Shown: positions 1,421 to 63,847 of the stretch, in pieces | Position numbering within the stretch: position 1 is the first letter of the stretch | Layout: each line of letters begins with the position of its first letter | Source of the DNA: Marsupella aquatica | Lineage: Eukaryota > Plantae > Marchantiophyta | DNA length: 64,000 bases | Reading direction: 5' to 3' | Assembly (NCBI GenBank): GCA_973895155.1 | Contig: OZ316894.1 | Location: forward strand, 372,001 to 436,000 | Translations under genes and position numbers: made by a program | Notes under the pieces: generated by a model | What the model saw: the letters and a program-made list of their open reading frames with translations, nothing else | What the model was told of the DNA's origin: nothing | Databases searched by the model: none

Positions 1421-1513
1421 TTACTCGTGTAAATGCAATGGTTAGTACTAGGGCTTGGTGTATTCTGCCCAGGCGAATACGCACATGTCTCCCCTCTACG
1501 GTATGTAGAGTGC

Positions 1514-1531
1514 CCCCTCCATCTAGCGCCA
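1514..1531 (-). promoter_or_regulatory. primer binding site (tRNA-Asn-like) of family A element
   Basis: The minus strand reads TGGCGCTAGATGGAGGGG, one mismatch from the complement of the plant tRNA-Asn 3' end as I recall it. It lies between the LTR and gag. Confidence 0.8.
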
Positions 1532-6357: not shown

Positions 6358-6836
6358 TCAGAGGAGGAAGCAGTGACGACTAAGAGGGGGGGAGAGAGCT
6401 AGGGTCGAAGCTGGCGCGTGGACTGAATGACTGGTGCACTTGCAAAGGATCAGCCCCCTTTTATACCCTGAGAGCTCGTCGATCGCCCGAAGCCTCCTCG
6501 TTGCTTATAGGCCGAACCTCTCACGCTTGCAGTGTACCAGCCACTCCGCCGGTCCGAGTCAGCGTGTGACAGTGCCCGCCTCCCGAAGTTCGTTATACGG
6601 ACCCGAGGGGGAGGGGCAGGGGGGCCCATTACACGATCGCAACCTGGTCGTGCGAATAGCGACGCGCCGCCAGCCCGAACATGAATTCCCGTTTATTGAC
6701 TAATGATTCCCTACTCATAATGGCTACCTAAATACTGTCGTTATGCTAATGATAGCGGCCTAAGATACTCCTAAAGCGCGTGCCAAGCATGGTTTAGACG
6801 GAATCACTCATTACCCGCCGTACCGGCGGCGTCACA

Positions 6837-38474: not shown

Positions 38475-41400
38475 ATCCCACTAAGCTAAGTGTCAGGGCC
38501 GCCTCTTGGTCCTGATCCTAATCCTAAACTTAGAGATCTGAGCCCGCCCTGCCCACTCACGCCTCCTCCCTCCACGTCCGCCCTCCTTGAAAGGAGCGGC
38601 CCTCCACCACCGTCATGGCAGCGGTGTCTGTTCCTCAGTGGACGCCCCCAACGCTTCCTCCTCGGCCACTGCCGTCGGTTTGTTCTCTGACAGATTACCT
38701 GCCCTGGACCGAGTCAACTCTCCATCGGCCTGACTGGGTCCACCCTCGGCTACGGCCTCAGCATCGGCTACGGCCTCAGCATCGGCTACGGCCTCAGCAT
38801 CGGCTACGGCCTCAGCATCGGCTACGGCCTCAGCATCGGCTACGGCCTCAGCATCGGCTACGGCCTCAACATCGGCTACGGCCTCAACATCGGCTTCGTT
38901 ACCGAGTATCCTGGCCTCGGCTTTGCCATCCCCTCCTTCTAGGGTAGTTGGATCCTCTGCCGTGACCCTGCCTGAGGTCGGTGCTGGGTTTACCTCCTTG
39001 GTCACCACGGCCTGTGGAGCCGTATTACTCCTTGACCCAGAAGGTTTCCGCTTCTTCTTCTTTTCTGGTTCGGCAGCTGGCCCCTTCCCCTTGCCACTTA
39101 CTTCAGGCACTGGTGCAAGTGGCGCGGCTTGTCCTTCGGCCAGTACCACTCCTGGTAACTTGGTTGCCCCAATTGGAGTTGGGCCTGATGAAGCCAAGCA
39201 CTTCAATACTGCGGCTTGTTTCTTCAGCCGCTCCGTTTGGTTGTCGGCTTGCCGTTGTAAGTTCTCTAGCTTCCGCGTGCTTTCCTCCAACTCTTCCTGT
39301 ACTTCATCCAGGTCCTTGCGCGCCTCCTCCAGCTCCTTCTGGGCTTCCTCCAGCTCCTTCTTCAACACAGCTCTCTCCTCCCGGGTTGCTCTTAACTCCT
39401 TGTCGAGCTCTGCAATGATGACAGACTCCATCTGGTTCATCTTGGCGTAAGTCTGATCGAGCATATTGTCCTTCTCGCGGAGGTCGGCCTTGAAGCTGGC
39501 CGTCAGGGATGCAAGCTCCTGCTGTAGCATAATAATCCCTTGATAGGATTTCCCTAACTCCGCCTCCTTCTGTTCAAGGGCTCCGCGGATATCCTCGAGC
39601 TCCCCCTTCAATGCCCTTCCCCTTCTCTGGGTCTCCACCATGGCCCGGTTGTTGGCTGTTATGTGGGCCTCCTCTGCATCCCTTAGCTCTCGTTTCCACT
39701 TCTCCCGCTCCTTGATCGCATCGGCCAACTCTCCTTGGGTCCGAGTCAGTTTATCCTTGATAATCTGATTATCAGTCTATGCGGTATCCAACTGGCCCTG
39801 CATGATATTTAGCTCATGCCGCTTAATCCGCAGCTCATCTTGGGCTTTCTTGGCCGCCCTCAGGTCTTCGATTTTGGCTTCCCTTGCCCTAAGCCGACGG
39901 ATGACCTCGTCCTTCTTGCTTCTTTCCAAAGCCACCGCTTCTTCTAATTGGTGCTTCTCCAACATCTCCCTCTGAAAAAAGGGTCCCTGCTCCAACTCCT
40001 CCCCAAAGATGCTGAGCGCCAGTTCTCCACACATTTCCCCGTACTCCATGGCTCTATCTTTAGCGTAGGTGGAGGAAGTAGAAGTCATCGGCATCATCCA
40101 CCGCGGCCTTTGTTCCCAAGCCGCCTTGCGGATCTCTTCTATCGTGGCTGGAGGGCTGCTTTGTTTTTCTGCAAGCCGCTTGATGTTCTCTGGCCATTCT
40201 CCTCCTGGTAAATCCTTCTCCCTAGCCAGGGCCGCCTCCTCTTCCTCCCTGATTCGCTCCTAAAATTCCTGTGCCGTCTGTTTATGCCGTCAAAGCTCGG
40301 GGGAGCGACATCTGGTGGGGGAGACTCGGGGCTGCTCTGCTGGGTCGGGTCCCCATGAACTACTCTTGGGAGCATGGGGATGAACCGGCCACAGGTCCTT
40401 ACTCCTGGAACATGATGATCCGACCCGTAGCCGAAGTTATCATTGTTGTAGTCCTCCACCGCCTCCTCTTCGGCTTGGACTACCGGCTTCTCCCGCTGCT
40501 CTCCTGGTTTTGTCGTGAACACGGCTTCACCTATCACTGGTCTTGGTTCCTCCTCCGGCTTCCGTGTTGATCTCTTGTTCTCCTTGTCGTGGCCGGGAGC
40601 TACGGTTTGCTTCTCCTTGGCTCGTGTTCCGGCCTCCTTCTCTCCTTGACTCCAGTAAAGGGGTTTTCCCTTGTAAGCCGGCTTAGGCCTACCTCTAGAG
40701 CAGTGTCCTATATTGTTGCCGTTGCCGTTGCCGTTCTCTTTTCTTTCTCCAGCAGTTTCCGCAGATTCTGCATGCCTGGTTGCTGCATCGGCAAGTCCTC
40801 CGTCCTTGGCCTAAACACCTGCTCGATTGTACTAGGACTGTCGGGCGGTTTGGGTTTCTCAGTTGCCGGCCTCTGTTCCGGAACCTCCTCCGGTGCCCTT
40901 GCCTGTAGGGGAAGTACCGGGGCAAAGGTCTTACTTTGGGCATACCGGCACAATAGCGGCATGTGATAGCCAAGCCGGGACATGCTTCCCTTGCCGATCA
41001 CCAGCTGTTCCTCCTTCAAGATCTTCTTTAGTTGAGTGAGGAGGTAACCGTTGTAGTCTCGGCTTGGGTCTGACCTCTCTGCCAGATAGACCTGTGCATT
41101 GCCGATCTCTGGTCTCGGCCAGTTGCAATGCATGGTCACCCGCAAGAAATCGATCATCTCTCCTATATGCGGGTTGGTGCAGGTGTTATGGAAGAAGCCA
41201 TTCTTTGTTGAAGGTCCTGGAAACGACCGGAACTCCTTGTCTGGCAAGGTCTTCCTGGTGTCTACCTTGGTCTTATTGCCCATCGGCAAGCCAAACACTT
41301 CGGCAATCACCTGGGGAGTGAGATAGAAATCCTTCCCATACACCCTTGTCGAATTGGTCTCGTACTCCCATGATCCCACGAATTCTAGTAAGTCTGAATC

Positions 41401-42455
41401 CGGCACCACCTGCTTCAGCCACGGTAACTTTACGAAGGGTTCCAAGCCGGATCCGGCCATGAAGCCTTGGTATTTCCGAGTCTGCATAGCCGTAAAGCAT
41501 GCATCCTCCTCCCGTGCAAAGTGTAATTGCACCTCCTCGGGGAGGATCGCCGCCCAACCTTTCCAGGTGTCATTTCTTGTCGGAATGGCGTTGATGGGGT
41601 CGACCTCCTCCTCCTCGTCGTCTCTCTGCCTCCTGCTCTGCTGTTCTGCTGGCTTCTTTGGTGCCGCCGACCTCGTTCTTTTTGTTGGGGTGGCCTCTTC
41701 GTTGTTGTTTCCCTTCCTCTTCATCTCGGCTGCCGTGGATGTCTCTCCTAGCATGGTTGCCTTTGTCCACCCCTCCGTGCTACCCTTCAACTCCCAGTGT
41801 ATGTCGTTGCAGCGTTTGATGGCTTCGCCGATGCCGACGACTCTGTCTTCGCAAAACAGAAGGTCGTCGAGTTGATTGGTAGTAGGAGTCCACAAGAATT
41901 TGGCCTTGATGAGTTCTCCTCCTAAGAAGGCAGCTTTCTGCAGCTCCCACAATCGAGCGAGCTCCTGCCGTTCTCGAGCTGCTCTCTCTGATTCTTCGTC
42001 CTCGTAAGTCCCAATGTACTCAGTTGCCCGTTCGAACAGGCATCCCCAAAAATGTGCCGCTTGATTGACGTTGCTCATACCCTTATCGAGTTGATAGTCG
42101 GTATCTGCTCCCACCCTGAGTGCTTGCCTAAGTAGTTGACAGTAGTTGGCCGCCCGTAGTTGTCTGCCCAGTTTGTGCTTGCAAATGAGCCATAATTCCT
42201 TGCGATCGGTCCTTACCCCTCTCCTCCTCTGGTTCTCCCTCCCGTTGGTTACCCCTAGCTGCCGGCACTTAGCGTGCCCTAACCCTAATCGTGTTCTCTC
42301 CCCCGGCGTCCTTACTTCCGGCCTCGGCTCGGGTTCCATAGTCACCCTTAATTGTTTATATTTTCCTTATTTTTGTAACTATACTAAGGTGTTTCTAGGG
42401 TTCACTTCCCTTTTCCCACTTTAACTAGCCCAATGATTCCTGGCTAGGCATCACA
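38475..42455 (-). mobile_element. LTR B1 (3'-truncated) with disrupted LTR ORF (38613-42345), inserted in the internal region of element B2
   Basis: Terminus GGCATCACA at 42455. Colinear with about 56126-60010; the last ~770 bp of the LTR are missing. The right flank is B internal sequence matching 63850-63883. Confidence 0.88.
38746..38895. repeat. 18-bp coding tandem repeat GCATCGGCTACGGCCTCA, about 8 units, encoding (AEAVAD)n
   Basis: Read directly; the other B copies have only 1-2 such units. Confidence 0.92.
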
Positions 42456-45487: not shown

Positions 45488-47024
45488 TACCTATACTTCT
45501 TCCTATCTTCATATCTCACAGCTTAAGAAATGCCCCCTCCATCTTGCGCCAAAAATGTGGTGCGTCCCATGGCTCCCCAAACCCAAGAAACCCCCCTGCG
45601 CAGGCTGATTCCCACAGGTTTCGTCCTCGGAGAGGCCGTTTCCTCGGCTTAGCGGCATGGGACGCTACTAACTTCCCTCTACTACTTCTATTAACATTTT
45701 ACACACATATACTGGACAGATCCTTCATCGGGTCATGAGATACGAAGTCGGCCTAATCTAGGCCTTCCCTTGTATTCCCCTTCTTTTCTTTAGGTATATT
45801 TGGATTCCGCCGCCAGAATGATCCCCAATTGGTTTGGTTAAGCCGCTAAGACCTCTCTCAGCTCGACACATCCAACTCCCTTGCTTACTTCCCTTTGATG
45901 TGGGCACTCTTCACACAAGTTAATGCGACACACAAATAGCAAAATGACTCCTTCTGACTGAGTTATACCATGCACTTGCCATACAAACAGTACATCTCAT
46001 ACACAAGTTCTACGAACTAAGTCGTGAGGCCAACTCTATTCAACTCTTAGGCATGAGGAAACATGAATATACACAAGGGTCACCGTATAACTAACCGAGA
46101 GCTTCTCTTACTACTTGATCCCAGCCCTGCTGGTGCAACTAAAAACTTGCAAAGGAAGAGGCCCAAAACTCCCCGCTGCCCAGGTACTTATCCTGGCAGT
46201 GGATCTGCCCAAGTCCTTGCAACATAAGCCTAATCTATCCTACCTGTAATGTACCTAACTACAATCTATCTATGTACAGCGAGGCAGGAGCACAAGTGTT
46301 GCTCCTACGAGTGGATCCGCAATCCCACTAATCTAAGTGTCAGGGCCGTCTCTTGGTCTTGATCCTCAGCCTAATCTTGGAGATCCAAGCCCGCCCTGCC
46401 CACTCACGCCTCCTACCTCCACGTCTGCCCCTCCTAAAAGGAACGGCGCCCTTGCACCGTCACGACACCGATGGTGGATCCTCAATGGACGCCCAGTAGC
46501 CACTGTCATCGGTCCGTCCTCTGACAGATTACCTGCCCCAGACTGAGTCAACGGGTCTTCGGCCTGACTGGGTCCACCCTCGGCTTCAGCCTCTGCATCG
46601 GCCACGGCCTCCCCGGCTTGCTCAATTGGCGGATCTGGTACACCGGCTTCATTACTGAGCATTTTGGCTTGGGCCGTTGTGACGCCGCCGGTACGGCGGT
46701 TAATGAGTGATTCGGTCTAACTGCGCTTGGCATGCGCGTTAGGAGTGTCTTAGACCGCTATTATTAGCATAACGACAGTATTTAGGTAATCATTATGGGT
46801 AGGATATCATTAGGCAATAAGGGGGGATTCAGGATCGGACTGGCGGCTGGTCGCTATTCGCACACCCGGGTTACGAGCGTGGAGGGGCCCCTCCCTCGGG
46901 TCCGTATAACGAACTTAAGGAAGTGGCCACTGACACGCACTGACTCAGACCGGCACACCACAAGCGTGAGCGGTTCATCCTATGGGCGTCGAGGAGACGA
47001 CGGGGGATCAACAAGCCCTCAAGG

Positions 47025-47032
47025 TATAAAAG
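47025..47032 (+). promoter_or_regulatory. candidate TATA box of the LTR A ORF
   Basis: TATAAAAG about 100 bp upstream of ATG 47133, conserved in A1 (reverse strand near 6458-6465). Confidence 0.5.
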
Positions 47033-47132
47033 GGGAGCCAACCCTTTGTAGTGCACCAGTCCATCAGTCCACGCGCCAACTTCGACCCCAGCTCTCTCGT
47101 TCGCTCTAAGTCGCCACTACTATCTCCTCTGA

Positions 47133-49769
47133 ATGTCGCACACGATCCTCTCCAGCTCGGCCATTCGATTCTGGACACAGTTCCTATCTACCGGAAGGCA
47201 CTTCGCCGACTCATTGAAACACGCCAACCCGCGCCGATACGAAATCGAACGCGAGTACGAGAGAGCCATCCGCCTAGCAGGACGACACCACTACATCCTT
47301 AACTTTAACTACCCATCTCAGAGCGAGCTTTACCGACCTGCAGAGGTATCCGGGTACTTCTTCAACGGAGACAAATATATCGGGTTCTGGGAAGCATTGC
47401 TTCGGCTTCTGGATGAGGTCTTCAATATCCCGGGTACGATCGACTTGCAACGACATCACTTCGACCACATCCCTGCTCAGGTTCGGGCTATCATCAACAG
47501 CGAGTCCAGCACTACCCGTTCGACAAGGTCGTCTGCACTCGCTTCGGAGAACTTCTACCAGCACCTATAGAGTTTCATAGGAACTCGGCCAGCAACCAAC
47601 ATGACCAACTCAGTTGTACCCGTACCCGTACCGGTACAACCTCAGGCTCAGCTTCAGCTTCAGCCTCAGCCGCAGCCTAGCCAAACCCCACCACCGATCG
47701 CCCAGCCAGCACAAGTACGCTCCGTCATCAACGCTGTGGATCTTAGCGATGACGACGAGGCTACCCTACCCTTGACCAGGCGGCCCAGAGGAGCAAGCGC
47801 TCAGGGGGCCGACACTATATCGTCCCCACCCCCTGCTCTGACCCCAGGAGCGGCCCCGGCAGACAACATGGTGACCGTGGCCGACCCGGGCCCGTTACTA
47901 ACGGCAGTGGCACTACCCAGGCCCGATCGGGAGGATGGGGAGGTGTCACCTTCCTCGAGCCAGTCACGGGGGAAGAAGAGGAAGGAATCCGCCACTGCAT
48001 CCGGGTTACCGTTGGCCACGGTAGCCGTGGCCAAGGTGACGATGCACCGCATGGGGGAAAACGTTCACAAAAACATCCTCCATCCCAAACATGCGGTGTA
48101 CCTGAAGACTCAGGGATTCGAGCACCTCGCCTCCCTCCCCTGGAACACTTGTAGGTACTACGGGGAGGACATGACGGAGTTCGTCAGGAATTATGACGAT
48201 GCGCGTCAACATACTCGGCTGCGGGGAAGGAGTATGTCTCTCACGGAAGAACGGCTCAGGATGATCTTCGGGTTACCCGAAGGTGACCATCGCGTCGAAT
48301 CACGGGCTCCCGGGGGCAAGGGAGCCAAGTACCAATCTTCAAGTTTTCCCTCAGAGGGAGCAGTGGACAACGGGTTCGTGATGAAGACCTGCCTCATCCC
48401 CGAGATAGCTGAGCGACTGGAGTTCCAGAGGTACGCCCTCCACATGATGGAACCCCGGGGGGAGATCTCCGCCGCCCAGGTTATTCAGGTCAAGAACTAT
48501 CGACCTAGGAGGTGGGCGTCGTACTTCGCTAAGAAATTCCATGAAGAGATGGAGCTGCGAAGGAAGACGTTGTATATTGGCGGGAAGGCGTATTTCGCTA
48601 GCCACATCGAGATCATTCTTGAGTGGTACGCCCGGTTTGATCGACGAACCCTTCCCCGTGTCAACGTTACAAAGCTGGTCCCAGCTAGGTGGGTTTTCCC
48701 GGCCTTGGAGAGGCGGCCCCAACCCGAGGCCCAAAGTCCAGCGGACACGCCAGCTTCACCCACCCCACCTCCACAAGTAGCTGTAGTCGTAACCGAGGAG
48801 GTACCGGATGGGTCGGGTGTCACAACCGTTGATGCGACCCAACAGGTCGGGCTAAGTACAGAAGTCGGTACGACGGAGATCTTACCCGAACCCGGTTCTC
48901 CCAAAGACCCACCGGCAGCTATTCCGGAGAACCGGACATTGCTACAGGAGGACGCTCCAGCCCCTTCCAACGTTACGTCCCCAGGGCTGGACGTCACTGC
49001 CCCGGCCCCCGTGCGTGTTGACGTCTGCCCGTGCCCAACTCCGGACAGACACAACTTGGACCACCCGGAACTCTTCGTACCGGGTACATTTCTGAACGGG
49101 CTTCTGGGAGATTTCTCTCATCAGATTGCCCGGGATACCGGGGAGTTCATGGCCCGGAAGGTAGCCTGTTTCTTCAATCAGGAGTTGGTTGCCGCAGTAA
49201 AGGCAGGTCGGGCCCAGTCAGAGGCCCTTCAGAGGATAGAGCGGGACCGGGTGGAGTCCGTGTACCTAAAGAACGAAGTTGCAGCTCAAGAGGCTGAGCT
49301 TCGGCAACTACGACCCAAGGTTGTAGCCGCCGATGAGCTGTTAGCAAAGGCACACGCTTTTACCGCCCTAGCCGAACAGGCCAAAGCTGGGTACGATGCC
49401 GAGATTACACGACTCCGGAACCAGATTGACAGTTTGAAGAATCAAACTGTCACCTGGCAGAAAGACCTGGAGGAGGCCGAGGAACGGGCCCAACGGGACA
49501 CGGCGGAGATAGCCACGCTGCAGACCGAGGTGGCGCGGCTCCAAACCGAGGCCGAAAAGCAGGACCAGCTGGCGGGTAAACTGACAAGTGACGCCCAGCA
49601 GCTGGAGGAGGCTTGTCAGGAGGCAGCAGAGGAGACGGACGCGGCAAGGCGAGAGAACGAATCTCTGATGGACCAGGTCCAGCTCCTCAAGGCGGACAAT
49701 GACAGGCTTCGAAGGCAGCGGGATGGCCGCTCCCATTCGGGCGGCTCTGGCAAGCGTGCCAGGCATTAG
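47133..49769 (+). CDS. LTR A ORF, ~878 codons with one premature TAG (47568-47570); accessory domain plus C-terminal coiled coil
   Basis: The 145-aa and 722-aa ORFs are in frame, and A1 has CAG at the stop position. The C-terminus is heptad-rich. Confidence 0.85.
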
Positions 49770-52700
49770 CAGCGGAGTAGGAATAGATTAGGATTAGGAC
49801 TGGCTTAGTCAGGCTCTTGGGACAGGCACCTGCCTTAGGTACAGCAGCGCTGCCGTGCTGTCCAGCCTGCGTAGATTAGGATCTTCTAATAAGACACAGC
49901 CGTTTTCCGGCCTGACTGTCAGCTTAGTTAGGACCTTAGTCAGCGAATCTTCGGCGAGAGGACACCCCGTCCCTCGTCCCTTAGTATTTAGTGCACCCCT
50001 CGGTAGAGGCAAGGGGGGGTTTTTAGTTGCAAAGTTGGGCGTCCGCGGTATGTGCGGGGAGTCCCGACCTCTGGGAATGAAAGAGTACCAAGGGGAGGGG
50101 GTAGGACTAAGCTCGTCGGGCGAGTGCGGAGCCGGGCTCCGTTGTAGTGTGCACCCTCGGCCTTGAACCTGTTCATTCCGGGGCTGTCGGGTCAACTAAG
50201 TGTACGCATATGTTCCCTTTGTAGTAAAATCCTTTCCCATCATTTTCCTTCGTGTAAATCGAGATTGTATGCATGTGCGTGTGTATGTGTGTGGGTTTCT
50301 CATATATGGGTGGCAGTGCCAGGCCGAACGCACTACCCGAGACGTGCACAGGATGCAGCCTGCGGGTAAGTGGTTGCGAGCACGGGTTGAGGACCTGTAT
50401 CATCGAATCCGGATCGAAGGCGGACAGCACGAAGGCTTAGAAGCCCTTAAGCCGGGGTCAATCCTGCTATCGACTAAGGTATGTTCCGGCGGCGGAACAC
50501 AAACCATACCTAGGAGGTGTCCGTATTTAGCAGTATGCGCACTTAGCGCTAGTTTACGAGAATAAGGTGCATTACGTGCTTCCCTTCCTGCCCGACCCCT
50601 CAGATTTACGAAGGATGTGCCCGTCTAAGCTGAAGTCTGAGTTAAGGCCGCAGCCGATGACGTGACAGCCGTGCCATCCCTGCCTACTAGAGTAGTTTGA
50701 TCTTCTGTCATGACCCTGCCTACGGTTGGTACCGGTTTTACCTCCTTGGTAACAACGGCTTGAGAAGCCGTGTTACTCCTTGACCCAGAAGGTTTTCGCT
50801 TCTTCTTTTGCTTTGGTTCGGCAGCTGGTCCCTTCCCTTCGGTACTTATCTCCGGCACCGGGGTGTGTGTCTCGGTTTGTCCTTCGGCCAGTACCACTCC
50901 TGGTAACAAGGTTGCCCCACTTGGAGTTGGTCCTGAGGAAGCCAAGCACTTAAATACTACGGCCTGTTTCTTCAGCCGCTCCGTTTGGTTGTCGGCTCGC
51001 CTTTGTAAGTTCTCCATCTTCCTCGTGGTTTCTTCCAACTCCTCCTGAGTTTCGTCCAGGTCTTTCCGTACCTCCTGTAGCTCCTTTTGGGCTTCATCCA
51101 ACTCTTTCTGGGCTTCCTCCAACTCTTTCTTTAAGGTAGCCTTCTCCTCCTAGGTTTCTCTCAGCTCCTTGTCGAGCTCCGTAATGACCTCAGACTCCAT
51201 TTTATTCATCTTGGCATAAGTCTGGTCGAGCTGGTCGTCTTTCTCGCGGAGGTCGGCCTTGAAACTGGCCGTCATGGACGCAAGCTCCTGCCGCCGCATG
51301 ATAATTGCCTGATAGGATTTCCCTAACTTGGCCTCCTTCTGCTCAAGGGCTCCGCGGATATCCTCGAGTTCTCCCTTCAACGCCCTCTCCCTTCTTTGAG
51401 TCTCCGCCATGGCCCGGTTGTTGGCTGCTATGTGGGCCTCCTCTGTGTCTCTCAGCTCTCGCTTCTACTTCTCCCTTTCTTTGACCGCCTCAGCCAACTC
51501 TCCTTGAGTCTGAGTCAGTTTATCCTTGATAATCTGATTATCAGATTGTGCGGTATCCAACTGCCCCTGCATGATGTTTAGCTCATGCCGTTTAATCCTA
51601 AGCTCATATTGGGCTTTCTTGGATGCCCTCAGGTCTTTTACCTCGGCTTCCCTCTCCGTAAGCCGTCGGATGACCTCGTCCTTCTTGCTTCTCTCCAAAG
51701 CCACCGCCTCTTCTAATTGGTGCTTCTCCAACCTTTCCCTCTGGAAAAAAGGTCCCTGCTCCAACTCCTCCCCAAAGATGTTGAGCGCCAGGTCCCCACA
51801 CATCTCCCCGTACTCCATGGCTCTATCTTTAGCATAGGTGGAGTAACCAAAAGTCATCGGCATCAACCACCTTGGCCTCTGTTCCCAAGCTGTCTTGCGG
51901 ATTTCTTCTATGGTAGCAAGAGGGTTGCTTCTCTTTTTGGCAAGCCGCCTGATGTCCTGCGGCCAATCTCCTCCTGGTAAATCTTTCTCCCTAGCCAGGG
52001 CTGCCTTCTCTTCCTCTCTGAGTCGCTCCTGAAACTCTTGTGCCGTTTGCTTGATGCCGTCAAAACTCGGGGGAGCGACATCTGGTGGGGGAGACTCGGG
52101 GCTGCTCTGCTGGGTCGGGTCCCCTCGAACTACTCTTGGAAGAGTGGGGATGAACCGGCCACAGGTCCTTACTCATGGAACATGATGGTCCAACCCACAG
52201 CCAGAGTTATCATTGTTGTAGTCCTCCACCGCCTCCTCCACTGTTTGGACTCCCGGCTTCCCCCTCTGTTCTCCTGGTCCTGCCGTGAACACAACCCCAC
52301 AGATCACGGGTTCTGGATCCTCCGGCTTCCACGTTGATCTCATCTTCTCCCTGTCGTGACCAGGGGCCTCGGGCTGCTTCTCCTCGGCTTTGGGACTTGA
52401 AGTTCCACATTCGGACTCCCGGCTCGTGTTCTGGCCTCCTTCTCTCCTTGGCCCCTGTAAAGGGGTTTTCCCTAGTAAGTGGGCTGAGGCCGACTTTAGA
52501 AGCAGTATTTGGTATTGGCCCCATTGCCGTTGCCGTTCTCTTTTCCTTCTCCAGCAATTTCAGCAGATTCTGCATGCCTGGTTGCTGCATCGGCAAGTCC
52601 TCCTTCCTCGGCCTAAACACCTGCTCGATTGTAGGACTGTCGGACTAGGTTGGTTTCTCTGTTGCTGGCCTCGGTTTTAGAACCTCCTCTGGTGCCCTTG

Positions 52701-54252
52701 CCTGCAAGGGCAGTACCGGGGCAAATATCCGGCTTTGGACATACCGGCACAACAGCGGCATGTGATAACCAAGCCGGGACACGCTTCCCATGCCGATTAC
52801 CTGTTGTTCCTCCTTCAAGATCTTCTTCAGTTGGTTGAGGAGGTACCCGTTGTAGTCCCGGCTTGGGTCTGGCCTCTCTGCCAGGTAGACCTGTGCCTTG
52901 CCAATCTCTGCCCTTGGCAAGTTGCAATGCATGGTCACCCGCAAGAAATCGATCATTTCTCCGATGTGCGGGTTGGTGCAGGTGTTCCGGAAGAAGCCAT
53001 TCTTTGTTGATGGCCCTGGAAACGACCGGAACTCCTTGTCTGGCAAGGTCTTCCAGGTCTCTACCTTGGTCTTGTTGCCCATCAACAAGCCAAACACTTC
53101 GGCGATTACCTAGGGCGTGAGATAGAAATCCTTCCCATACACCCTCGTGGAATTGGTCTCGGGCTCCCATGACCCTACGAATTCTAGTAAATCTGAATCC
53201 GGCACCTCCGGCTTCAACCATGGTAATTTTACGAAGGCTTCCAAGCCAGATCCGGCCATGAAGCCCTGGTACTTCTTGGTCTGCATGGCCGTAAAGCATG
53301 CATCCTCCTCCCGGGAAAAATGCAGTTGCACCTCTTCTGGTAGGGTTGCCGCCCAGCCTTTCCAGGTGTCATCCTTTGTTGGAATGGCATTGATGGGATC
53401 GACCTCCTCCTCTTTGGCCTCCGCCTGCCTCATGCTTCCCTGCTCTGCTAGCTTCCCTAGTGCCGCCGACCTCGTTCTTTTTGCCGGGGTGGCCTCTTCG
53501 TTGTTGTTTCCTTTCCTCTTCATTTTGGCTGCCGTGGATGTTTCTCCTAGCACGGTTGCCTTTGTCCACCCCTTCGTGCTACCCTTCAACTCCCAGTGTA
53601 TGTCGTTGCAGCGGTTGATGGCTTCTCGAATGCCGATGATCCTGTTTTCACAAAACAGAAGGTCGTCAAGCTGATTGGCAGTGGGAGTCCATGAGAACTC
53701 GGCCTTGATGAATTCTCCTTCTAAGAAAGCAGATTTCTGCAGCTCCCACAGTCGAGCTAGCTCCTACCGTTCTCGAGCTGCTCTCTTTGCTTCTTCATCC
53801 TCGTAAGTTGTAATGTACTCAGCTGCCCGTTCGAACAGGCATCCCCAAAAATGTGCCGCTTGATTGACATTGCTCATACCCTCCTTGAGTCGTTCGTTGG
53901 TATCTGCTCCCACCCAGAGTGTTTGTCTAAGCAACTGACAGTAGTTGGCCTCCCGTAGTCGTCTGCCCAGTTCGTGCTTGCAAATGAGCCGCCATTCCTC
54001 GCGAGTTGTCCTTACCCCTCTCCTCCTTGATGCTTCCCTACCGTTGGTTACCCCTAGCCGCCGACACTTAGTGCGCCCTAACCCTAATCGTAATCTCTCC
54101 CCCGGCGTCCTTACTTCCGGCCTCGGCCCGGGTTCCATAGTCACCCTTACTTGTTTATATTTTCCTTATTTTTGTAACTATACTAAGTTGTTTCTAGGGT
54201 ACACTTTGTTTTCCCATTTAACCGGCCTAGTGATTCCTGGTTAGGCATCACA

Positions 54253-56125: not shown

Positions 56126-59100
56126 TGTGATGCCTAGACAGGAATCACTCGGCCGGTTAAGTGGGTAAAGCAGGAAGGCACCCTAGGAACACCTTAGTAT
56201 AGGGACAAAACAAGGAAAATATAAACCATTAGGGGCAACCATGGAACCCGGGCCGAGGCCGGAGGTAAGGACGCTGAGGGTGAAAACTCGATTAGGGTTA
56301 GGGCGCGTTAAGCGTCGGCGGCTAGGAAGGATCAATGGGAAGAAGGACCGGCAGAGGAGAGGGGTAAGGAGCGCTTGCAGGAGATGGTGGCTCATTTGCG
56401 AGCACGAACTAGGCAGACGACTATGGGAGGCCAACTACTGTCAGCTGCTTAGGCAAGCACTCGGGGAGAGAGTAGATACCGATGATCGACCTAAGGAGGG
56501 TATGAGCAACGTCAATCAAGCGGCACATTTCTGGGGATGCCTGTTCGAACGGGCAACTGAGTACATCAAGACTTACGAGGACGAGGAATCAGAAAGGGCA
56601 GCTCGAGAACGGCAGGAGCTCGCTCGATTGTGGGAGCTGCAAAAGACGGCTTTCTTAGGAGGCGAACTCATCAAGGACGAGTTCCTGTGGACGCCTACTT
56701 CCAATCAACTCGACGATCTTCTGTTTTGCAAAGACAGCGTCGTCGGCATCCGAGAGGCCATCAAGAACTGCAACGACATACACTGGGAATTAAAGGGTAG
56801 CACGGAAAGGTGGACCCAGGCAACGGTGCTAGGAGAAACCTCCACAGCAGCAGAGATGAAGAGGAAGGGAGCCGTCAACGATGAAGCCACCCCGGCAAAA
56901 AGAACGAGGTCGGCGGCACCAAAGAAGCCAGCCGAGCAGCAGAGCAGGAGGCAGGGAGAAGCCGAAGAGGAGGAGGTCGATCCCATCAAGGCCATTCCAA
57001 CCAGGGATGACACCTGGAAGGGCTGGGCGGCAACCCTACCGGTGGAGGTGCAACTACATTTTGCACGGGAGGAGGATGCATGCTTTACGGCCATGCAGAC
57101 CAAGAAGTACCAAGGCTTCATGGCCGGATCTGGCTTAGAGGCCTTTGTAAGATTACCATGGCTGAAGCCGGAGGTACCGGAGTCAGACCTATTAGAATTC
57201 GTGGGGTCATGGGAACCCGAGACCAATTGCACGAGGATATATGGGAAGGATTTCTATCTTACTCCCAAGGTAATTGCCGAAGTGTTTGGCTTGCCGATAG
57301 GCAATAAGACCAAAGTTGATACCAGGAAGACCTTGCCTGACAAGGAGTTCCGGTCGTTCCCCGGGCCATCAACGAAGAATGGCTTCTTCCGGAACACCTG
57401 CACCAACCCGCACATAGGAGAGATGATCGACTTCTTGCGGGTGACCATGCATTGTAACTTGCCGAGGGCAGAGATCGGCAAGGCACAGGTCTATCTGGCA
57501 GAAAGGCCAGACCCAAGCCGGGACTACAACGGGTACCTCCTCAACCAATTGAAGAAGATCTTAAAGGAGGAGCAATAGGTAATCGGCATGGGGAGCGTGT
57601 CGCGGCTTGGCTATCACATGCCGCTGTTGTGCCGGTATGCCAGAGGTCAGACTTTTGCCCCGGTACTTCCCCTGCAGGTAAGGGCACCCGAGGAAGCTCC
57701 AACGCCGAGGCCGTTGGCTGAGAAGCCTCAACCACCTGTTAGCCCTACGATCGAGCAGGTGTTTAGGCCCAGGAAGGAGGACTTGCCGATGCAGCAACCA
57801 GGCATGCAGAGTCTGCTGAAACTACTGGAGAACGAAAAGAAATCGGCATCGGCAACAACAACGGCAACGGCAACAATGCACGACACTACTACAGAGGTAG
57901 GCCTACACCGGCTCACAAGAGAAAACCCCTTTGCTGGAGACAAGGAGAGAATCAGGCCGGAATCCAAGCCCGGTGTTCGAATGTATGTGGGAATCTCAAG
58001 CTCCGAATCTGAGGCAGAATTGCCTGAAGCTCCTACCGACGAAGAGGAGAGGGAGAAGCCGGACGGCCAAGAAGTAGAGGAGGCAGTGGAGGACTGCAGC
58101 CATGATAATTCCGGCTATGGGTCGGACCATCACGTCCCAGGAGTAAGGACCTGTGGCCGGTTTGTCCCCACACTTCCAAGGGTAGTGCGAGGGGACCCCA
58201 ACCAGCAGAGTAGCCCTGAGTCTCCCCCACCAGATGTTGCTCCCCCGAGCTTCGACGGCATAAAATAGACGGTGCAGGAATTTCAGGAGCGAATCAAGCA
58301 GGAGGAGGAGGCAGCCCTGGCTAAGGAAAAGGATTTACCAGGAGAAGATTGGCCGGAGGACATCAGGCGGCTAGCCAAAAAAGGAAGCAAACCTCTAGCC
58401 ACGATTGAAGAGATCCGCAGGACGGCTTGGGAGCAGAGGCCGCGATGGGCGATGCCGATCACTTCTACTTACTCCACCTACGCTAAGAATAGAGCCATGG
58501 AGTATGGTGAGATGTGTGGGGAACTTGCGCTCGGCATCTTTGGAGAGGAGTTGGAGGTAGGACCCTTTTTCCATAGGGAGCAGTTGGAGAAGCACCAATT
58601 AGAAGAAGCGGTGGCTTTAGAGAGAAGCAAGAAGGACGAGGTCATTCGGCGGCTTAGGAGGATGGAAGCCGAGATTGAAGATCTAAGGGCGGCCAAGAAA
58701 GCCCAAGATGAACTGCGGATTAAACGACATGAGCTGAACATCATGCAGGGGCAGTTGGACACCGCGCAGGCTGATAATCAGAATATCAAGGATAAACTGA
58801 CTCAGACGCAGGGAGAGTTGGCCGACACGATCAAAGAGAGGGAGAAGTGGAAGCAAGAGCTGAAGAATACAGAGGAGGCCCACATAACAGCCAACAGCCG
58901 GGCCATGGCGGAGACCCAAAGAAAGGAATGGGCGTTGAAAGGGGAGCTCGAGAAAATCCGTGGAGCCCTTGAGCAGAAGGAGGCCGAGTTAGGGAAATCC
59001 TATCAAGGGATTATGGCGCTGCAGCAGGAGCTTGCGTCCCTGACGGCCAGCTTCAAGGCCGACCTAAGGGAGAAGGACGAGATGCTCGAACAGACTTACG

Positions 59101-60784
59101 CCAAGATGAACCAGATGGAGTCTGTCATCATTGCAGAGCTCGACAAGGAGCTAAAAGCAACCCAGGAGGAGAGGACTACCTTGAAACAAGAGCGGGAGGA
59201 AGCCCAGAAGGAACTAGAGGAGGCACGCAAGGACCTGGATGAGACCCAGGAGGAGTTGGAGGAAATCACGAGGAAGATGGAGAACCTCCAGCGGCGGGCC
59301 GACAACCAAACGGAGCGGCTGAAGAAACAAGCCGCAGTATTTAAGTGCTTGTCTTCATCAGGCCCAACTCCAATTGGGGCAACCAAGTTACCAGGAGTGG
59401 TACTGGCCGAAAAAGCCGCGCCACCTGCACCAGTGCCGGAAGTAAGTGGGAAGGGGAAGGGACCAGCTGCCGAACCAGAAAAGAAGAAGAAGCGGAAACC
59501 TTCAGGGTCAAAGAGTAATCCGACTCCACAAGCCGTGGTGACCAAAGAGGTAGAACCAGCACCATCCTCCGACATGAATACGGCAATAGATCCCGCTATG
59601 ATCACAGGTGGGGGTGGTGCGGCCCAAGCCGAACTACTCAGTAAGGAGGCCGGTATTCCAGATCCGCCTCTTGAGCAGGCCGGGGAGACCGTAGCCGAGG
59701 CTGAGGCCGTAACCGATTCCCGAGCCGATGCCGACGCTGATGGTGGACCCAGTCAGGCCGATGGAGAGTTGACTCAGTCAAGGGCAGGTAATCTGTCAGG
59801 GAATGAGCCTACGGCAGTGGCTGAGGAGGAAGCGTTGGGGGCGTCCATTAAGGATCCACCACCGGTGTCGTGACGGTGCAAGGGCGCCGTTCCTTTTAGG
59901 GAGGGCGGACGTGGAGGGAGGAGGCGTGAGTGGGCAGGGCGGGCGCGGATCTCCACGTTTAGGATTAGGATCAGAACCAGGAGCGGCCCTGACACTTAGC
60001 TTAGTGGGATTGCGGTCCCACTGGTAGGAGCAACACTTGTGCTCCTGCCTTGCTGTACATAGGTAGATTCGGGCAAGTAGATTACTGTTAAGTAGATTAG
60101 GCTTACGATGCAAAGAATGGCGGATCCACTACCAGGATAAGTACCTGGGCAGCGGGGAGCTCAGGGCCTCTTCTTTAGCAAGTTTTTAGTTTGCACCAGC
60201 CGGGCTGGGATCAAGTAGTACGAGAAGCTCTCGGTTAGTCATACAGTGACCCTTGTGTATATTCATGTTTCCTCATGCCTAAGAGCTGAATAGAGTTGGC
60301 CTCACGGCTTAGTTCGCAGAACTTGTGTATGAGATGTACTGTTTGTATGGCAAGTGCATGGTATGACTCAGTCAGAATGAGTCATTTTGCTATTTGTGTG
60401 TCGCATTAACTTGTGTGAAGAGTGCCCACATCAACCAAAAGGAAGGAAAGTAAGCAGGGGAGTGAGAGTTGGATGTGTCGAGCTGAGAGAGGTCTTAGCG
60501 GCTTAACCAACCTATTGGGGATCATTCCGGCGGCGGAATCCAAACATACCTAACAAGATGGAGGGGAAGACAGGGGAAGGCCTAGATTAGGCCGGCTACG
60601 TATCTCATGACCCGATGAAGGATCTGTCCAGTATATGTGTGTAAAATGTTAATAGTAGTAGTAGAAGGTTAGCAGCGTCCCATGCCACTAAGCCGCGGAA
60701 ACGGCCTCGCCAAGCGCGAAACCCGCGGGAATCGGCTTGAGCTGGGGGGTTTCTTGGGTTTAGGGAGCCATGGGACGCACCACA
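56126..60784 (+). mobile_element. 5' LTR of element B4, 4659 bp
   Basis: TGTGATGCC...GCACCACA, followed by TTTT and the PBS. The left terminus is shared with B1 and B2, the right with B2. Confidence 0.92.
56241..59873 (+). pseudogene. LTR B ORF, ~1210 codons, two in-frame TAG stops (57576, 58266); accessory domain plus long coiled coil
   Basis: ORFs of 445, 226 and 533 aa share one frame, and B2 has Gln codons at both stop positions. Confidence 0.88.
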
Positions 60785-60806: not shown

Positions 60807-60853
60807 GCATTTCTTAAGCCGTGAGATATGAAGTTAGAACGGAAGCGTAGGTA

Positions 60854-63847
60854 ATGACTGACCTTACGCTGAGGGAAGAAAGAGTGATTCAACGGGAGAG
60901 AGCTCGACTGCAGCAGCTCGCCGGGTGGCATGATACACAGCGACTGAGAGGGGCAGAAAGAGCTGGTAGCTCCGAAACTGGAAGTGGTGTCGAAGAAGAC
61001 ATACCAGAAGAAGAGTCGGTAAGGAGAAGTGAGTCTCCAACCGACATGGGGGAACCAGAGGCACGGCCAGACGAGAGGCCAGGGACCAGATTGAGCCAGC
61101 GGTCGCGCATACATTACAAGGCATTTCATGGGAGAGGAGATGAGGATCCGGACGAATGGTTGGATGATTTCGAGGGAACCGCTGCAGCAAATGGAGAATC
61201 GGCCATCAAGATGCAGATTCTTCCCGGCCTGTTCAAGGGTGAGGCTAGGCCTTGGTACAGAGCATTAGATGTGGAAGATCAAGCCATCTGGGATATCTTC
61301 AAAACACTCTTTGTTAAGGAGTTTCGACCCATTGGAACTTCAGAACTAGCAGTGCTGAAGTTGGGACAACTTCGGTTCAAGGAGAACAAATCCTTCAGGA
61401 AGTTCTTGCAACGCTTTCAGAAACTGGTAAGACGTACAAAGACCAATGCATCTGAAGGTATGCAACTTCAATGGTTGGTGAATGCTTTGCCACAGAAGAT
61501 GAGTTTTGCAATTAGGAAGGAGAACCCGGAGACTTTAGCCAAAGCAATTAAGGATATTCAATTATACATTAATGCAGATATCACAAGCCGGAAGAAACAG
61601 CTTAAGTCTGAGAGTTCCTCATCAGAGGAGGGATCACCCCATAAGAAAAAAGATAAGAAGAAGAAACATTCCAAGAAGTCTAGAAGTGATAAGTCAAGCT
61701 CGGATAGTGGGAGTAGCAAGAGTGAGTCATCTTCTAGTTCTGAAGAAGAAAAAACTAGGAAAAGGAAGGGCAGAAGGAGAGGGAAGACGAAAGTCAAGAT
61801 GGAGGCTAAGCCACCAGATAACATCGTAGCCCTTACCGAGCAACTTAAGGCTATCATTGCAGAGGTAAAACCAAAGAAGAAGGTAGTACAGGAGGATAGC
61901 TCTGTATGGTGTGCCTTATGTTATAAAACCGGACACCATAAAGATGCGTGTCCTAAGCTTAATACTAATCATGTTCGGCATGTGGCCGAGATCAGACCAT
62001 GTCAGGGAGAAGTAGAGTACTTTTTAGGAGATGCCGCTGATAGTGTTTTCGGCATCAGTGAGACTGGAGCACGAGACCTATCCAACAGACCTGCATCTCT
62101 ATGGTCAGGGTTAAGGAACAATCCAGGAGAGATGTATCCTCGGATTATTCAGAACCCGTCAGTACCTCCTAGGCCGAATGTGCAAAGATTTGCGGCGTGC
62201 TATAATTGTGGTCAACCTGGCCATTTTGCTAGAGAATGCCCGAATGCACGCAAACAGGGTGATGGACAACCAGCTCAGCTATGTATGGGATGCCGACAGG
62301 AAGGTCATATGCTAGGGCAATGTCCTACTTGGTTGGCAGGCCTGGCCGCAAATCATAAGCTTTTGCCGATCAAGATCTTACCGCCAGGTACTACCCCCGG
62401 AGGAGTTCAAATCAACCACATCGAACTAGGATGGCAAGAGGATGCCGAGGCAGAGTTCGTACCATCTGATGATGAGGCCGAAGCCCTATCAACCTTCTCA
62501 GAGGAGGATTTAGATCATGATTGCTGCCGGGTCTCTACTCGATCTACCAGAAGGAAGGAAAGGTGGGATGGGCTGGCCAAAAATAAAGGGAAGGTTACGG
62601 AGGAAAGGATCGACTCTTCGTCAACATCAACAGAAGGAGAAGGGAGGGCTCCGGCAATACAGGTAAGCCATGAGCCCACCAGTGAAACCAATCCTTCACA
62701 AGATAGCGACTTCAATCGAGATCATCCTAAGTTGTTCTACCCCTCTGTTACGGCTAGTGTTAAGGAACAACTAAGAGAATTAGAAACCCTGGAGAATACC
62801 GAAGCCATTGCCAAGGATGTAAAACGAGCAAAAGCATTGTTTGCTTCGGAAGACCCAACAGCTGTGGAGACTAGCGTGGCAAAACTGGCCGAATCCAAGA
62901 CGGAAACACCACCAGAGGAGAAGCCGATTGTTCCCTATGACCTGGCTAAAGATGTACTAGAATCTAGAGTCTCGGCAACAGTAGGTCAACTATTGAAAAA
63001 TAGCCCGTACTTCCGGAAGCAATTAAGGAAGGCTATTCTCGGCAAGCCGAGGTTACCCAAGGTAGCAACCAGATCCGACGTACTAATGATAGAAGAAGAT
63101 CAAGGAGCCCCAACATTACCCTTAATGATTCAAGGAGAATTATTACTACGGGTACCCATCAATGGAGGATCAGGGGTATGTATTATGATTGATTCAACAG
63201 CAAAAGGGTGGGGTCTAACACCGGAGATGACTGGAAGAGTGTTGAACATGGCCAATGGATATCAGGTCATTCCCACGGGAGTGTTAACCGGCATCAAGAC
63301 AGAGATAGGAGGTATCTTCTTTAGCATTAACTATGTAGTAATGAAGCCGGTAAATCCTACGTCATTCCGGCTATTGATTGGTAGGCCATGGCTGTACCTA
63401 GCCGAGGTAATAGAAGATTGGGGTAAAAAGCAGTTCACTTTCGGGACCCCCTCTATCACGGTATCCTGGGACACTAAGGATGACCGTAGGAAAAGCATAA
63501 GGGAAGTAGATGGGTACGACAGTGGACTGGAGTCAGCCGATGAAGTACGTTGGTTAGAATGCCTCACTAACCTAACCGAAGAAGGTGTCTTTGGACCAGA
63601 GGTACCCCCCAGCGGATTATGGCAAGAACCAATGGAAGGTGACTTGGAAGAAGAAGACGAAGAGGTCGAGGACTGCTTTACAATAGAATCCACCTTTTTA
63701 GCTGCAATTCCGGAGGAAGTAAAGGATGTAGACCAATTGGATGAAACGGCTAAGTGGGGAGCAGTAGCAGGGACAGTGGATTTTCTGCAGGCGTTGTGGC
63801 AGAGCCGGCAGGGTTCACAACGCCATCGATCATCGGCAAGGAATTAA
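60854..63847 (+). CDS. gag: gag-protease of Ty3/gypsy element B4 (non-chromovirus, Tat/Athila-like), 997 aa
   Basis: Retrotrans_gag-like region, three CX2CX4HX4C knuckles, and protease VPINGGSG..LLIGRPWL. The catalytic Asp is Asn in this copy and Asp in B2. Confidence 0.92.
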   Translation: MTDLTLREERVIQRERARLQQLAGWHDTQRLRGAERAGSSETGSGVEEDIPEEESVRRSESPTDMGEPEARPDERPGTRLSQRSRIHYKAFHGRGDEDPDEWLDDFEGTAAANGESAIKMQILPGLFKGEARPWYRALDVEDQAIWDIFKTLFVKEFRPIGTSELAVLKLGQLRFKENKSFRKFLQRFQKLVRRTKTNASEGMQLQWLVNALPQKMSFAIRKENPETLAKAIKDIQLYINADITSRKKQLKSESSSSEEGSPHKKKDKKKKHSKKSRSDKSSSDSGSSKSESSSSSEEEKTRKRKGRRRGKTKVKMEAKPPDNIVALTEQLKAIIAEVKPKKKVVQEDSSVWCALCYKTGHHKDACPKLNTNHVRHVAEIRPCQGEVEYFLGDAADSVFGISETGARDLSNRPASLWSGLRNNPGEMYPRIIQNPSVPPRPNVQRFAACYNCGQPGHFARECPNARKQGDGQPAQLCMGCRQEGHMLGQCPTWLAGLAANHKLLPIKILPPGTTPGGVQINHIELGWQEDAEAEFVPSDDEAEALSTFSEEDLDHDCCRVSTRSTRRKERWDGLAKNKGKVTEERIDSSSTSTEGEGRAPAIQVSHEPTSETNPSQDSDFNRDHPKLFYPSVTASVKEQLRELETLENTEAIAKDVKRAKALFASEDPTAVETSVAKLAESKTETPPEEKPIVPYDLAKDVLESRVSATVGQLLKNSPYFRKQLRKAILGKPRLPKVATRSDVLMIEEDQGAPTLPLMIQGELLLRVPINGGSGVCIMIDSTAKGWGLTPEMTGRVLNMANGYQVIPTGVLTGIKTEIGGIFFSINYVVMKPVNPTSFRLLIGRPWLYLAEVIEDWGKKQFTFGTPSITVSWDTKDDRRKSIREVDGYDSGLESADEVRWLECLTNLTEEGVFGPEVPPSGLWQEPMEGDLEEEDEEVEDCFTIESTFLAAIPEEVKDVDQLDETAKWGAVAGTVDFLQALWQSRQGSQRHRSSARN

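Follow-up and report, generated by a model that had tools for sequence, protein, structure and literature searches.

A putative selected gene inside the 4-kb LTR of a Ty3/gypsy-type retrotransposon of the liverwort Marsupella aquatica

Elements of the Ogre/OTA clade combine LTRs of up to about 5 kb with a sense-oriented extra ORF located 5' of gag, and in 57% of Ogre elements a plant mobile domain (PMD) is found in this 5' extra ORF. The available text of the OTA survey from which these data come (PMC6317226) classifies extra ORFs solely by where they are found with respect to the polyprotein, and it mentions none inside an LTR. The Ty3/gypsy elements Retrosat2, RIRE3 and RIRE8 of rice likewise possess very long LTRs (over 3.2 kb). 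For the 3.2-kb Retrosat2 LTR, the accessible part of the published description predicts a U3 region at positions 1-244 containing a TATA box, R at 245-2266 and U5 beyond, and it reports that gag-pol is preceded by an additional sense ORF, ORF0, whose evolution is faster than that of pol (PMC3485330). LTRs are presented in the introduction of that paper as non-coding control regions, and its available text gives the LTR no coding role, whereas the ORF described below lies in the LTR itself, upstream of the PBS position; the two ORFs are set apart here by description, not by sequence. A review of extra ORFs in plants also speaks, in the portion available, of the internal region (PMC7264820). The premise of the original prediction, that extra ORFs normally lie between the LTRs, thus agrees with the literature examined, as far as the available texts go. 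The literature searched, which stops short of subscription journals and supplements, yielded no account of an LTR-retrotransposon with an ORF inside its LTR. One apparent match ("LTRs encode") proved to be a generic sentence.

A different kind of mobile element provides the second point of comparison. VANC21, a DNA-binding protein that counters silencing, is encoded by VANDAL21 (Hiun) of Arabidopsis, a DNA transposon (MULE), and structures of its DNA-bound region, residues 296-560, are available (PDB 9lnj, 9lnk). According to the accessible part of PMC5735166, VANC proteins bind to short motifs in the non-coding parts of their own transposon and remove DNA methylation.

We analyzed a stretch of 64,000 nt of M. 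aquatica DNA (contig OZ316894.1, positions 372,001 to 436,000), hereafter the window, in whose coordinates all features are given. On the forward strand, a unit of 3,990 bp (46678..50667) begins with TGTGACG and ends with CGTGACA, i.e., it has TG..CA termini that form a short terminal inverted repeat, and it is flanked on both sides by the 5-bp target site duplication (TSD) GCCGT (46673..46677 and 50668..50672), within the 4-6 bp range. The 3' end reads as that of the Retrosat2 LTR (...CGTGACA) in the available text of PMC3485330. The unit is inserted in an LTR copy of a second family, family B (copy B2, 46322..54252, reverse strand). Two paralogues of this host repeat, B1 and B3, are uninterrupted and have a single GCC(G/T)T-like copy at the corresponding site, and a further paralogue, B4, matches the left flank of the insertion and nothing else. 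These findings bear out the earlier description of the unit, hereafter family A, as a TSD-flanked solo LTR. In addition, some joints in Logan contigs bypass the unit, and contig depth increases about 50-fold at precisely the first base, 46678 (X1), with steps also present in X2 and X5. Loose contig ends immediately before 46678 are purine-rich in three Logan runs (GGGAAGA, GGGAGATA and GGAGGGAGCTA), which hints weakly at a polypurine tract. Within the window, no element carrying both LTRs was detected, and the unit never occurs behind a polypurine tract.

A second, degraded copy of family A occupies the position of a 5' LTR on the reverse strand (1545..6836). It is 79-88% identical to the solo LTR in three BLAST pieces, and both ends are common to the two copies. 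This copy is split by a 1,312-bp insert (about 4895-6199) bearing a LINE-type zf-RVT ORF, and its own ORF is broken by the LINE fragment, one frameshift and three stops. It is followed on the same strand by a leader of 379 nt (1166..1544) and by a gag ORF that runs off the window (2..1165) and matches Pfam Retrotrans_gag (PF03732). Gag of this type, detected in both families (E 1e-7 for family A and 5e-10 for family B), is consistent with OTA-like Ty3/gypsy elements (Metaviridae); the pol regions of both families fall outside the window. It had been proposed that this copy is a 5' LTR ahead of a PBS and gag. The leader and gag do lie directly 3' of the unit, and the PBS part of that proposal was not confirmed: the first TGG (TGGCGC...) is 13 nt beyond the LTR end and is at most a putative PBS. 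Its position is atypical relative to the distance of 0-5 nt used, in the part of the work available, by Neumann 2019. A search of the 64-kb window for tRNA genes found none. Self-priming is not supported for family A, as the LTR contains no stretch of more than 8-9 nt complementary to the sequence that follows it. A gypsy pol with RT-RH-INT-PHD on the same strand (11470-8697) was considered as part of one element with this copy, which would turn the latter into a 3' LTR. The junction is not purine-rich and no gag resembling those of families A and B lies upstream; on this basis the arrangement was rejected, weakly, and this pol seems to be part of a different element.

The ORF of the solo LTR comprises 878 codons in sense orientation (47133..49769, forward strand) and, as predicted, is located wholly within the LTR. 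A single in-frame TAG (47568-47570) is private to the solo copy and is CAG in the second copy, and the ATG directly follows an in-frame TGA in both. Stop-free runs in the unit extend to 732 codons, compared with longest runs of 162 on average and 310 at most in 300 dinucleotide-preserving shuffles. Between the two family A copies, dN/dS of the ORF is 0.25 (bootstrap 0.19-0.31) versus 1.19 and 1.29 in control frames, which contradicts the neutral evolution named beforehand as an outcome that would speak against a gene. Small indels in the ORF measure 6, 18 and 57 nt, with one 1-nt frameshift (three of four are multiples of 3), and those outside the ORF are 1, 11, 12, 2, 1 and 1 nt long. The ORF is broken in all six LTR copies of the window (two of family A and four of family B). 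The encoded protein has KKRK-type basic clusters, a basic domain and a C-terminal coiled-coil tail (49401..49727, forward strand; sub-threshold Pfam coiled-coil matches). As judged from these sequence comparisons, the family A LTR contains a protein-coding gene preserved by selection.

The same architecture was observed in family B. Its LTR of about 3.87 kb in 5' position (56126..59994, forward strand; TGTGATGCC...CCCTGACA, termini TGTGATG...CCCTGACA) bears a homologous gene of 1,123 codons with two in-frame stops (56502..59873, forward strand), followed by gag with a zinc knuckle and a protease-like stretch (60851..63847, forward strand; Pfam Retrotrans_gag and zf-CCHC, protease recognized by eye). 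The order LTR-leader-gag was found twice for family B in the window. The stretch from 54252 to copy B1 (38475..42455, reverse strand), i.e., 54252-38475, was also considered as an intact LTR-gag-LTR element and rejected: it has no matching TSD, and the second family B locus runs past the join with other sequence, so that it looks nested or rearranged. The gag proteins of the two families are 41-45% identical, and by sequence the families are long diverged and distantly related. The LTR-borne proteins share a common architecture, with 27% identity in the globular domain (BLASTP E 3e-18), and ORF indels are mostly in frame in both families. For the family B ORF, dN/dS is 0.25-0.29 versus 0.87-1.52 in control frames; by segment it ranges from 0.06 to 0.44, compared with 0.9-1.0 just upstream of the ATG, and precisely at the ATG (56502) it drops from about 1 to values of 0.06-0.2.

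The TATA-like box that had been noted ahead of the family A ORF was recovered as TATAAAA (47025..47031, forward strand), a predicted promoter 102-108 nt upstream of the ATG. It is kept in both family A copies and is the sole match to TATA[AT]A[AT] in the LTR; in family B, ATATAAA is conserved at 56219. A candidate poly(A) signal, AATAAG (49888..49893, forward strand), lies 119 nt past the stop codon and is also kept in both family A copies. Given that the only TATA box is found about 105 nt before the ATG and AATAAG after the stop, the LTR would be divided into a U3 of about 0.38 kb, an R of about 2.9 kb with the gene in it and a U5 of about 0.75 kb. Such an R would be unusually long, and a TATA motif alone does not establish where transcription starts. 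The Retrosat2 group is similar in the accessible part of PMC3485330, where the LTR has a predicted TATA box close to its 5' end and R is also predicted to be very long. If this layout is right, each LTR, a solo copy too, would combine promoter, gene and terminator in one cassette, and full elements would have two copies of the gene.

The globular domain of the family A protein (221 aa, pI 9.8; 48030..48692, forward strand) has a local dN/dS of 0.135. It has no Pfam match even at E 10, the rest of the ORF giving only the sub-threshold coiled-coil matches, and a PDB sequence search returned no matches at E 10. An AF2 model of the domain reached pLDDT 92 and pTM 0.88, and AF2 with a 5-sequence alignment gave pLDDT 36. 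The top Foldseek match of the model was the VANC21-DNA structure (9lnj_A, probability 0.99). VIA-align superimposed 203-205 of the 221 residues on VANC21, i.e., the whole domain, at an rmsd of 4.1-4.2 A with a moderate Z of 8.2 and 12% sequence identity; VANC21 was the sole structural match, with the runner-up among 48,161 chains at Z 2.4. A VANC21-like fold is predicted, although similarity of fold is no proof of similarity of function. The gene is thus predicted to encode a DNA-binding protein with the fold of VANC21. The same fold is tied to PMD in the available text of a preprint (10.1101/2024.09.27.615353). Unlike the Ogre-type PMD ORFs, the family A and B domains remain below the Pfam thresholds for PMD, DUF1985 and Transposase_32, and no domain of the window reached the gathering score of any of the three. 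Two distant relatives gave sub-threshold scores, one for Transposase_32 (30.3 bits, cut-off 45) and the other for DUF1985 (23.1 bits, cut-off 35.1).

In all, 69 relatives of the domain were detected at E <= 1e-3 among 1.84 billion representatives; those that could be named came only from a liverwort, and most relatives lacked any host-gene Pfam family. A word-indexed protein search found nothing at near length; its profile version found one protein at near length and nothing at longer lengths. A metagenome scan found none. Like VANC21, the LTR-borne protein is encoded by a mobile element, and in-frame tandem repeats occur in variable regions of both proteins, as far as the available part of PMC5735166 describes VANC21. 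The two differ in that VANC21, with DUF1985 and DUF287, derives from a DNA transposon and lacks a long coiled coil. As for possible binding sites, 13 of the 14 GATTAGG matches in the window are located in non-coding parts of family A and B elements, on the sense strand; the total is mildly above chance (14 versus 8.3 expected, with 14 reached in 2 of 100 shuffles).

The explanation that we consider probable is that 46678-50667 is the solo LTR of a high-copy Ty3/gypsy-type element, and that it carries a selected 878-codon gene with a predicted TATA promoter supplied by the LTR; the predicted product is a VANC21/PMD-like DNA-binding protein, likely to protect the element against silencing. The likely ancestor of such an arrangement would be an element of the Ogre/Retrosat2 type, with its 5' extra ORF situated 3' of the LTR and ahead of gag; its PBS would have moved beyond this ORF, thereby bringing the ORF into the LTR. 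The protein would be imported into the nucleus and form multimers, which would recognize short motifs in the non-coding parts of the element; by analogy with the action of VANC21 on VANDAL21, it would then oppose silencing. A more far-reaching proposal, which we offer tentatively, is that in this lineage the LTR is itself a gene (promoter, ORF and terminator, with an R of about 2.9 kb, in every one of the very numerous LTRs, solo copies too), producing a sequence-specific VANC-like anti-silencing protein that works in trans across the whole family.

Accessory genes located partly or wholly in an LTR, and duplicated by integration, are represented by MMTV sag, HIV nef and foamy-virus bel. These are U3 genes of vertebrate exogenous retroviruses that share no sequence relationship with the gene reported here, for which the TATA box suggests a location in R/U5 and whose host is of the plant lineage. 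It is rather unlikely that the LTR-borne ORF is a real gene in U3 of the same kind, that is, a 3'-terminal accessory gene like sag, with genomic RNA starting 3' of the ORF. The gene would then be expressed either through genomic or spliced RNA or under a separate promoter further upstream, and it would be the polypurine tract, and not the PBS, that had crossed the gene. U3 is generally the long, variable part of the LTR and R-U5 is short in most LTR elements, and only about 120 nt separate the family B stop codon from the LTR end, a typical R-U5 length; splicing may also be involved, given a perfect donor-like CGG|GTAAGT at 50365 in both family A copies. In the family A LTR, however, the single TATA box precedes the ORF, with none in the 898 nt 3' of the ORF, which argues against a position in U3, as does the short U3 and 2-kb R predicted for the related Retrosat2 LTR in the part of that report available.

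Two further explanations deny the LTR a functional gene. That the 4-kb unit is not a true LTR is very improbable. The actual LTR would then be short, with an internal ORF like Ogre ORF1, and what looks like a solo copy would represent either a rearrangement or a small non-autonomous element. The lack of a full-length element in the window and the displacement of the PBS-like TGG from the unit end are in favor of such an arrangement, which the original prediction had itself named as contrary to its claim. It is contradicted by the absence of direct repeats within the 3,990-bp unit, by the TSD and TG..CA ends that bracket its full length, the 3' end next to the TSD lying beyond the ORF, by the ends shared between both copies and by the contig depth step at the first base. 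Hardly plausible, finally, is an ORF that represents a host gene fragment captured once and now decaying, with no role in the element. Transduction of genes by plant LTR elements is known (PMC7264820, available part), and every copy in the window is broken; but homologous ORFs occupy the same place in families whose gag proteins have diverged to 41-45% identity, dN/dS is 0.25-0.29 in both families with indels mostly in frame, and relatives of the domain elsewhere mostly lack a host-gene Pfam family.

The arrangement is a new structural variation on the known Ty3/gypsy elements with a 5' extra ORF (Ogre, Retrosat2). It would have consequences for gene dosage, as a full element has two copies of the gene and a solo LTR keeps one, so that recombination that deletes gag-pol leaves the gene in place. 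Reverse transcription would require an R or U5 of kilobase length. For annotation, a whole protein family would be hidden by pipelines that mask LTRs. With the fold match to VANC21 it becomes testable whether sequence-specific anti-silencing factors are encoded by retrotransposons in addition to MULEs, and the match also ties the retrotransposon-borne plant mobile domain to anti-silencing. If the LTR is itself a gene, as tentatively proposed above, the VANDAL anti-silencing system would have its first counterpart among retrotransposons, with a gene that would rise in copy number with each insertion and outlive LTR-LTR recombination.

The 3,990-bp family A unit at 46678-50667 starts with TGTGACG, ends with CGTGACA and has GCCGT on either side. 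It interrupts a repeat copy of family B, a second, distantly related LTR-element family. At the insertion site, the uninterrupted paralogues B1 and B3 contain a single GCC(G/T)T-like copy, in B4 only the left flank could be aligned, and some joints in Logan contigs bypass the unit. The predicted solo LTR with a target site duplication was thus confirmed. A second copy (copy 2; 6836-1545, minus strand) shares both ends with the solo copy (copy 1) and is 79-88% identical to it in three pieces. It is followed 3′ by a 379-nt leader and then a gag ORF (Pfam Retrotrans_gag, E 1e-7), so that the original prediction of a 5′ LTR before PBS and gag held with regard to gag. Integrase-type ends, the target duplication and the place directly ahead of leader and gag identify the unit as an LTR. 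Internal direct repeats were not detected within it, which rules out a small element with short LTRs and also argues against a short true LTR with an internal ORF, a possibility raised beforehand.

Copy 2 is interrupted by a 1,312-bp insert with a LINE-type zf-RVT ORF; the LINE fragment at 4895-6199 (ORF 5039-5845, plus strand; zf-RVT) sits antisense in the copy 2 ORF. Just upstream of copy 2, on the identical strand, is a Ty3/gypsy pol (8697-11470, minus) with RVT_1, RNase H and integrase zinc-binding and core domains, which terminates in a PHD finger (PF00628, E 7e-12) rather than a chromodomain.

Summed contig depth in four coded public sequencing runs steps up at exactly 46678, from ~1,900 to ~110,000 in X1, from ~1,450 to ~25,800 in X2 and from 0 to 66 in X5, and 14,604 X1 contigs fell on a 4.5-kb stretch that includes family B flanks. 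Family A thus has a very high abundance and a sharply defined left edge. Neither a complete element nor a family A unit behind a polypurine tract at an element 3′ end was present within the 64-kb window. In three runs, contig ends lying ahead of 46678 have the consensus termini GGGAAGA, GGGAGATA and GGAGGGAGCTA (agreement only 0.39-0.53), purine-rich sequences that hint weakly at a polypurine tract.

As predicted, an 878-codon ORF (47133-49769) lies wholly within the family A LTR. An in-frame TGA directly precedes its ATG, and both are kept in copy 2. The sole in-frame stop of copy 1 (TAG, 47568-47570) is CAG in copy 2, and ATG 47601, the start of a 722-codon ORF, is not kept there. Open stretches in the unit reach 732 codons, whereas none in 300 shuffled sequences exceeded 310. 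A comparison of copies 1 and 2 gave dN/dS values of 0.25 in the ORF frame (bootstrap 0.19-0.31) and 1.19 and 1.29 in two control frames, which speaks against the neutral evolution that had been considered as a counter-explanation. Constraint was tightest in a globular domain (0.135) and a coiled coil (0.155). Besides the LINE insert and a single 1-nt frameshift, indels within the ORF were 6, 18 and 57 nt; beyond it they were 1, 11, 12, 2, 1 and 1 nt. The dN/dS and indel pattern indicate that the ORF was coding sequence in the active lineage, both window copies being dead.

The predicted TATA-like box was also found: TATAAAA at 47025-47031, the LTR's sole match to TATA[AT]A[AT], is kept in both copies 102-108 nt before the ATG of the sense ORF, with a CT-rich stretch after it. 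AATAAG at 49888, 119 nt past the stop codon, is kept in both as well; the corresponding family B sequence, ATATAAA at 56219, is likewise conserved. Judged from these motifs, transcription probably starts upstream of the ORF; in the simplest reading, the LTR would consist of a U3 of ~0.38 kb, an R of ~2.9 kb with the gene and a U5 of ~0.75 kb. A sag-like location of the ORF in U3 is unlikely. A sequence resembling a consensus 5′ splice donor, CGG|GTAAGT, occurs ~600 nt past the ORF stop (50365-50371) and at the same place in copy 2.

Family B shows a parallel design. Its LTR (56126-59994, plus strand; first letters TGTGATGCC) has minus-strand copies at 42455-38475 and 54252-46322, the latter (B2) hosting the family A solo LTR, and a partial minus-strand copy at 56077-54253. 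At two loci the LTR directly precedes a leader plus an ORF that encodes Retrotrans_gag and zinc-knuckle domains. A sense ORF in this LTR had dN/dS of 0.25-0.29 against three other copies, with control frames at 0.87-1.52. Values were 0.87-1.01 in the 260 nt before ATG 56502 and 0.06-0.44 beyond it, and this drop delimits a 1,123-codon gene at 56502-59873, with two stops in the 56126-59994 copy. Proteins of both families have the same order of parts: N-terminal region, charged linker, globular domain, proline-rich linker, long coiled coil and basic tail. Their globular domains are 27% identical (E 3e-18) and their gag proteins 41-45%, which places the gene inside the LTR before the families split. 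A one-off gene capture is unlikely, since homologous ORFs occur in the LTRs of both. The ORF is disrupted in each of the six LTR copies that the window contains. Amid these much older elements, a Ty1/copia element (14194-19685, minus; gag, integrase, RVT_2) with 189-bp LTRs 99.5% identical is a young insertion.

Pfam gave only sub-threshold coiled-coil matches for the family A ORF and none for the globular domain even at E 10. A profile of the window copies retrieved 69 proteins at E <= 1e-3 (27 at E <= 1e-10) from 1.84 billion representatives. Among the 35 longer ones scanned, 28 had no Pfam family, one each had sub-threshold Transposase_32 and DUF1985, two had weak DDE_Tnp_4, and three had other families (two judged unrelated, one a coiled-coil match). 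Of ten relatives looked up, two carry a name, and each is listed as an unnamed product from the liverwort Calypogeia fissa. Among ESM Atlas clusters, the nearest were Streptophyta hypothetical proteins (score 0.92); clusters with the plant mobile domain (PMD; 14% of members) and DUF1985 scored 0.89.

An AlphaFold model of the domain, built from 32 sequences (five from the window and 27 of the 69 matches), had pLDDT 92 and pTM 0.88. The sole notable Foldseek match was VANC21, the anti-silencing DNA-binding protein of the DNA transposon VANDAL21, on its target DNA (9lnj_A; E 0.015, probability 0.99; all others E > 1). In VIA-align this match scored Z 8.2, with 203-205 residues aligned at an rmsd of 4.1-4.2 A, the runner-up among 48,161 chains reaching Z 2.4. 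A preprint (10.1101/2024.09.27.615353) describes PMD as structurally similar to DUF1985 of VANC and PMD-A proteins as retrotransposon-encoded. A third, divergent copy of this VANC/PMD-like domain (hhalign probability 74%, E 3e-5, 145 columns) occurs outside both families in an ORF at 29838-31343 (plus) whose adjoining ORFs lack Pfam matches. Two further ORF pairs without Pfam match, 27405-28457 (+)/35998-36885 (-) and 13205-13687 (-)/34295-34837 (+), run in opposite orientations, appear homologous on visual inspection and may be parts of an unclassified mobile element.

Ogre and Retrosat2 are the known type: Ty3/gypsy elements whose LTRs are very long and in which a sense extra ORF 5′ of gag encodes a PMD-class domain; in 57% of Ogre elements the extra ORFs include PMD (PMC6317226). 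For the 3.2-kb rice Retrosat2 LTR, the authors of PMC3485330 predicted U3 at 1-244 with a TATA box, R at 245-2266 and U5 to 3292, a split similar to that proposed for family A, and this LTR also terminates in CGTGACA. In A and B, two old sister families, the extra ORF is instead part of the LTR itself and precedes the PBS position. In the available text of a plant extra-ORF review (PMC7264820), the REXdb survey (PMC6317226) and the Retrosat2 study (PMC3485330), extra ORFs are located either with respect to the polyprotein or within the internal region, and full-text searches across the main texts of non-subscription journals did not reveal any LTR retrotransposon with an ORF within its LTR. 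Such an arrangement probably arose when the primer-binding site shifted across a 5′ extra ORF, making it part of U5/R. We consider it highly probable that the LTR carries a selected gene; the full mechanism as proposed is at best somewhat favored, and its anti-silencing part is less probable.

The domain is basic (pI 9.8), and KKRK-type clusters were seen by eye in the LTR-borne proteins. Tandem repeats of 18, 21 and 6 nt lie in frame inside the LTR-borne ORFs (38746-38895, 39282-39361, 51020-51130, 54776-54874, 47640-47682), including, in just one family B copy, an 18-nt array of 8.3 copies (99% match); these multiple-of-3 repeats are reminiscent of tandem peptide motifs that have been reported from the variable regions of VANC proteins. 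GATTAGG is a possible target motif: 13 of its 14 window matches are in non-coding parts of A/B elements, all 13 on the element sense strand, in LTR flanks of the ORF and in leaders (49786-49880, 56290, 59963, 60095, 60585 and minus-strand equivalents), with three within 110 nt past the family A stop codon. Its window-wide excess is small (14 versus 8.3 expected; 14 reached by 2 of 100 shuffles). From the fold match, PMD link, basic pI, basic clusters and in-frame repeats, the encoded protein is predicted to be nuclear, to form multimers and to bind DNA; it would act on the element's own chromatin and, by analogy with VANC21, may have an anti-silencing role.
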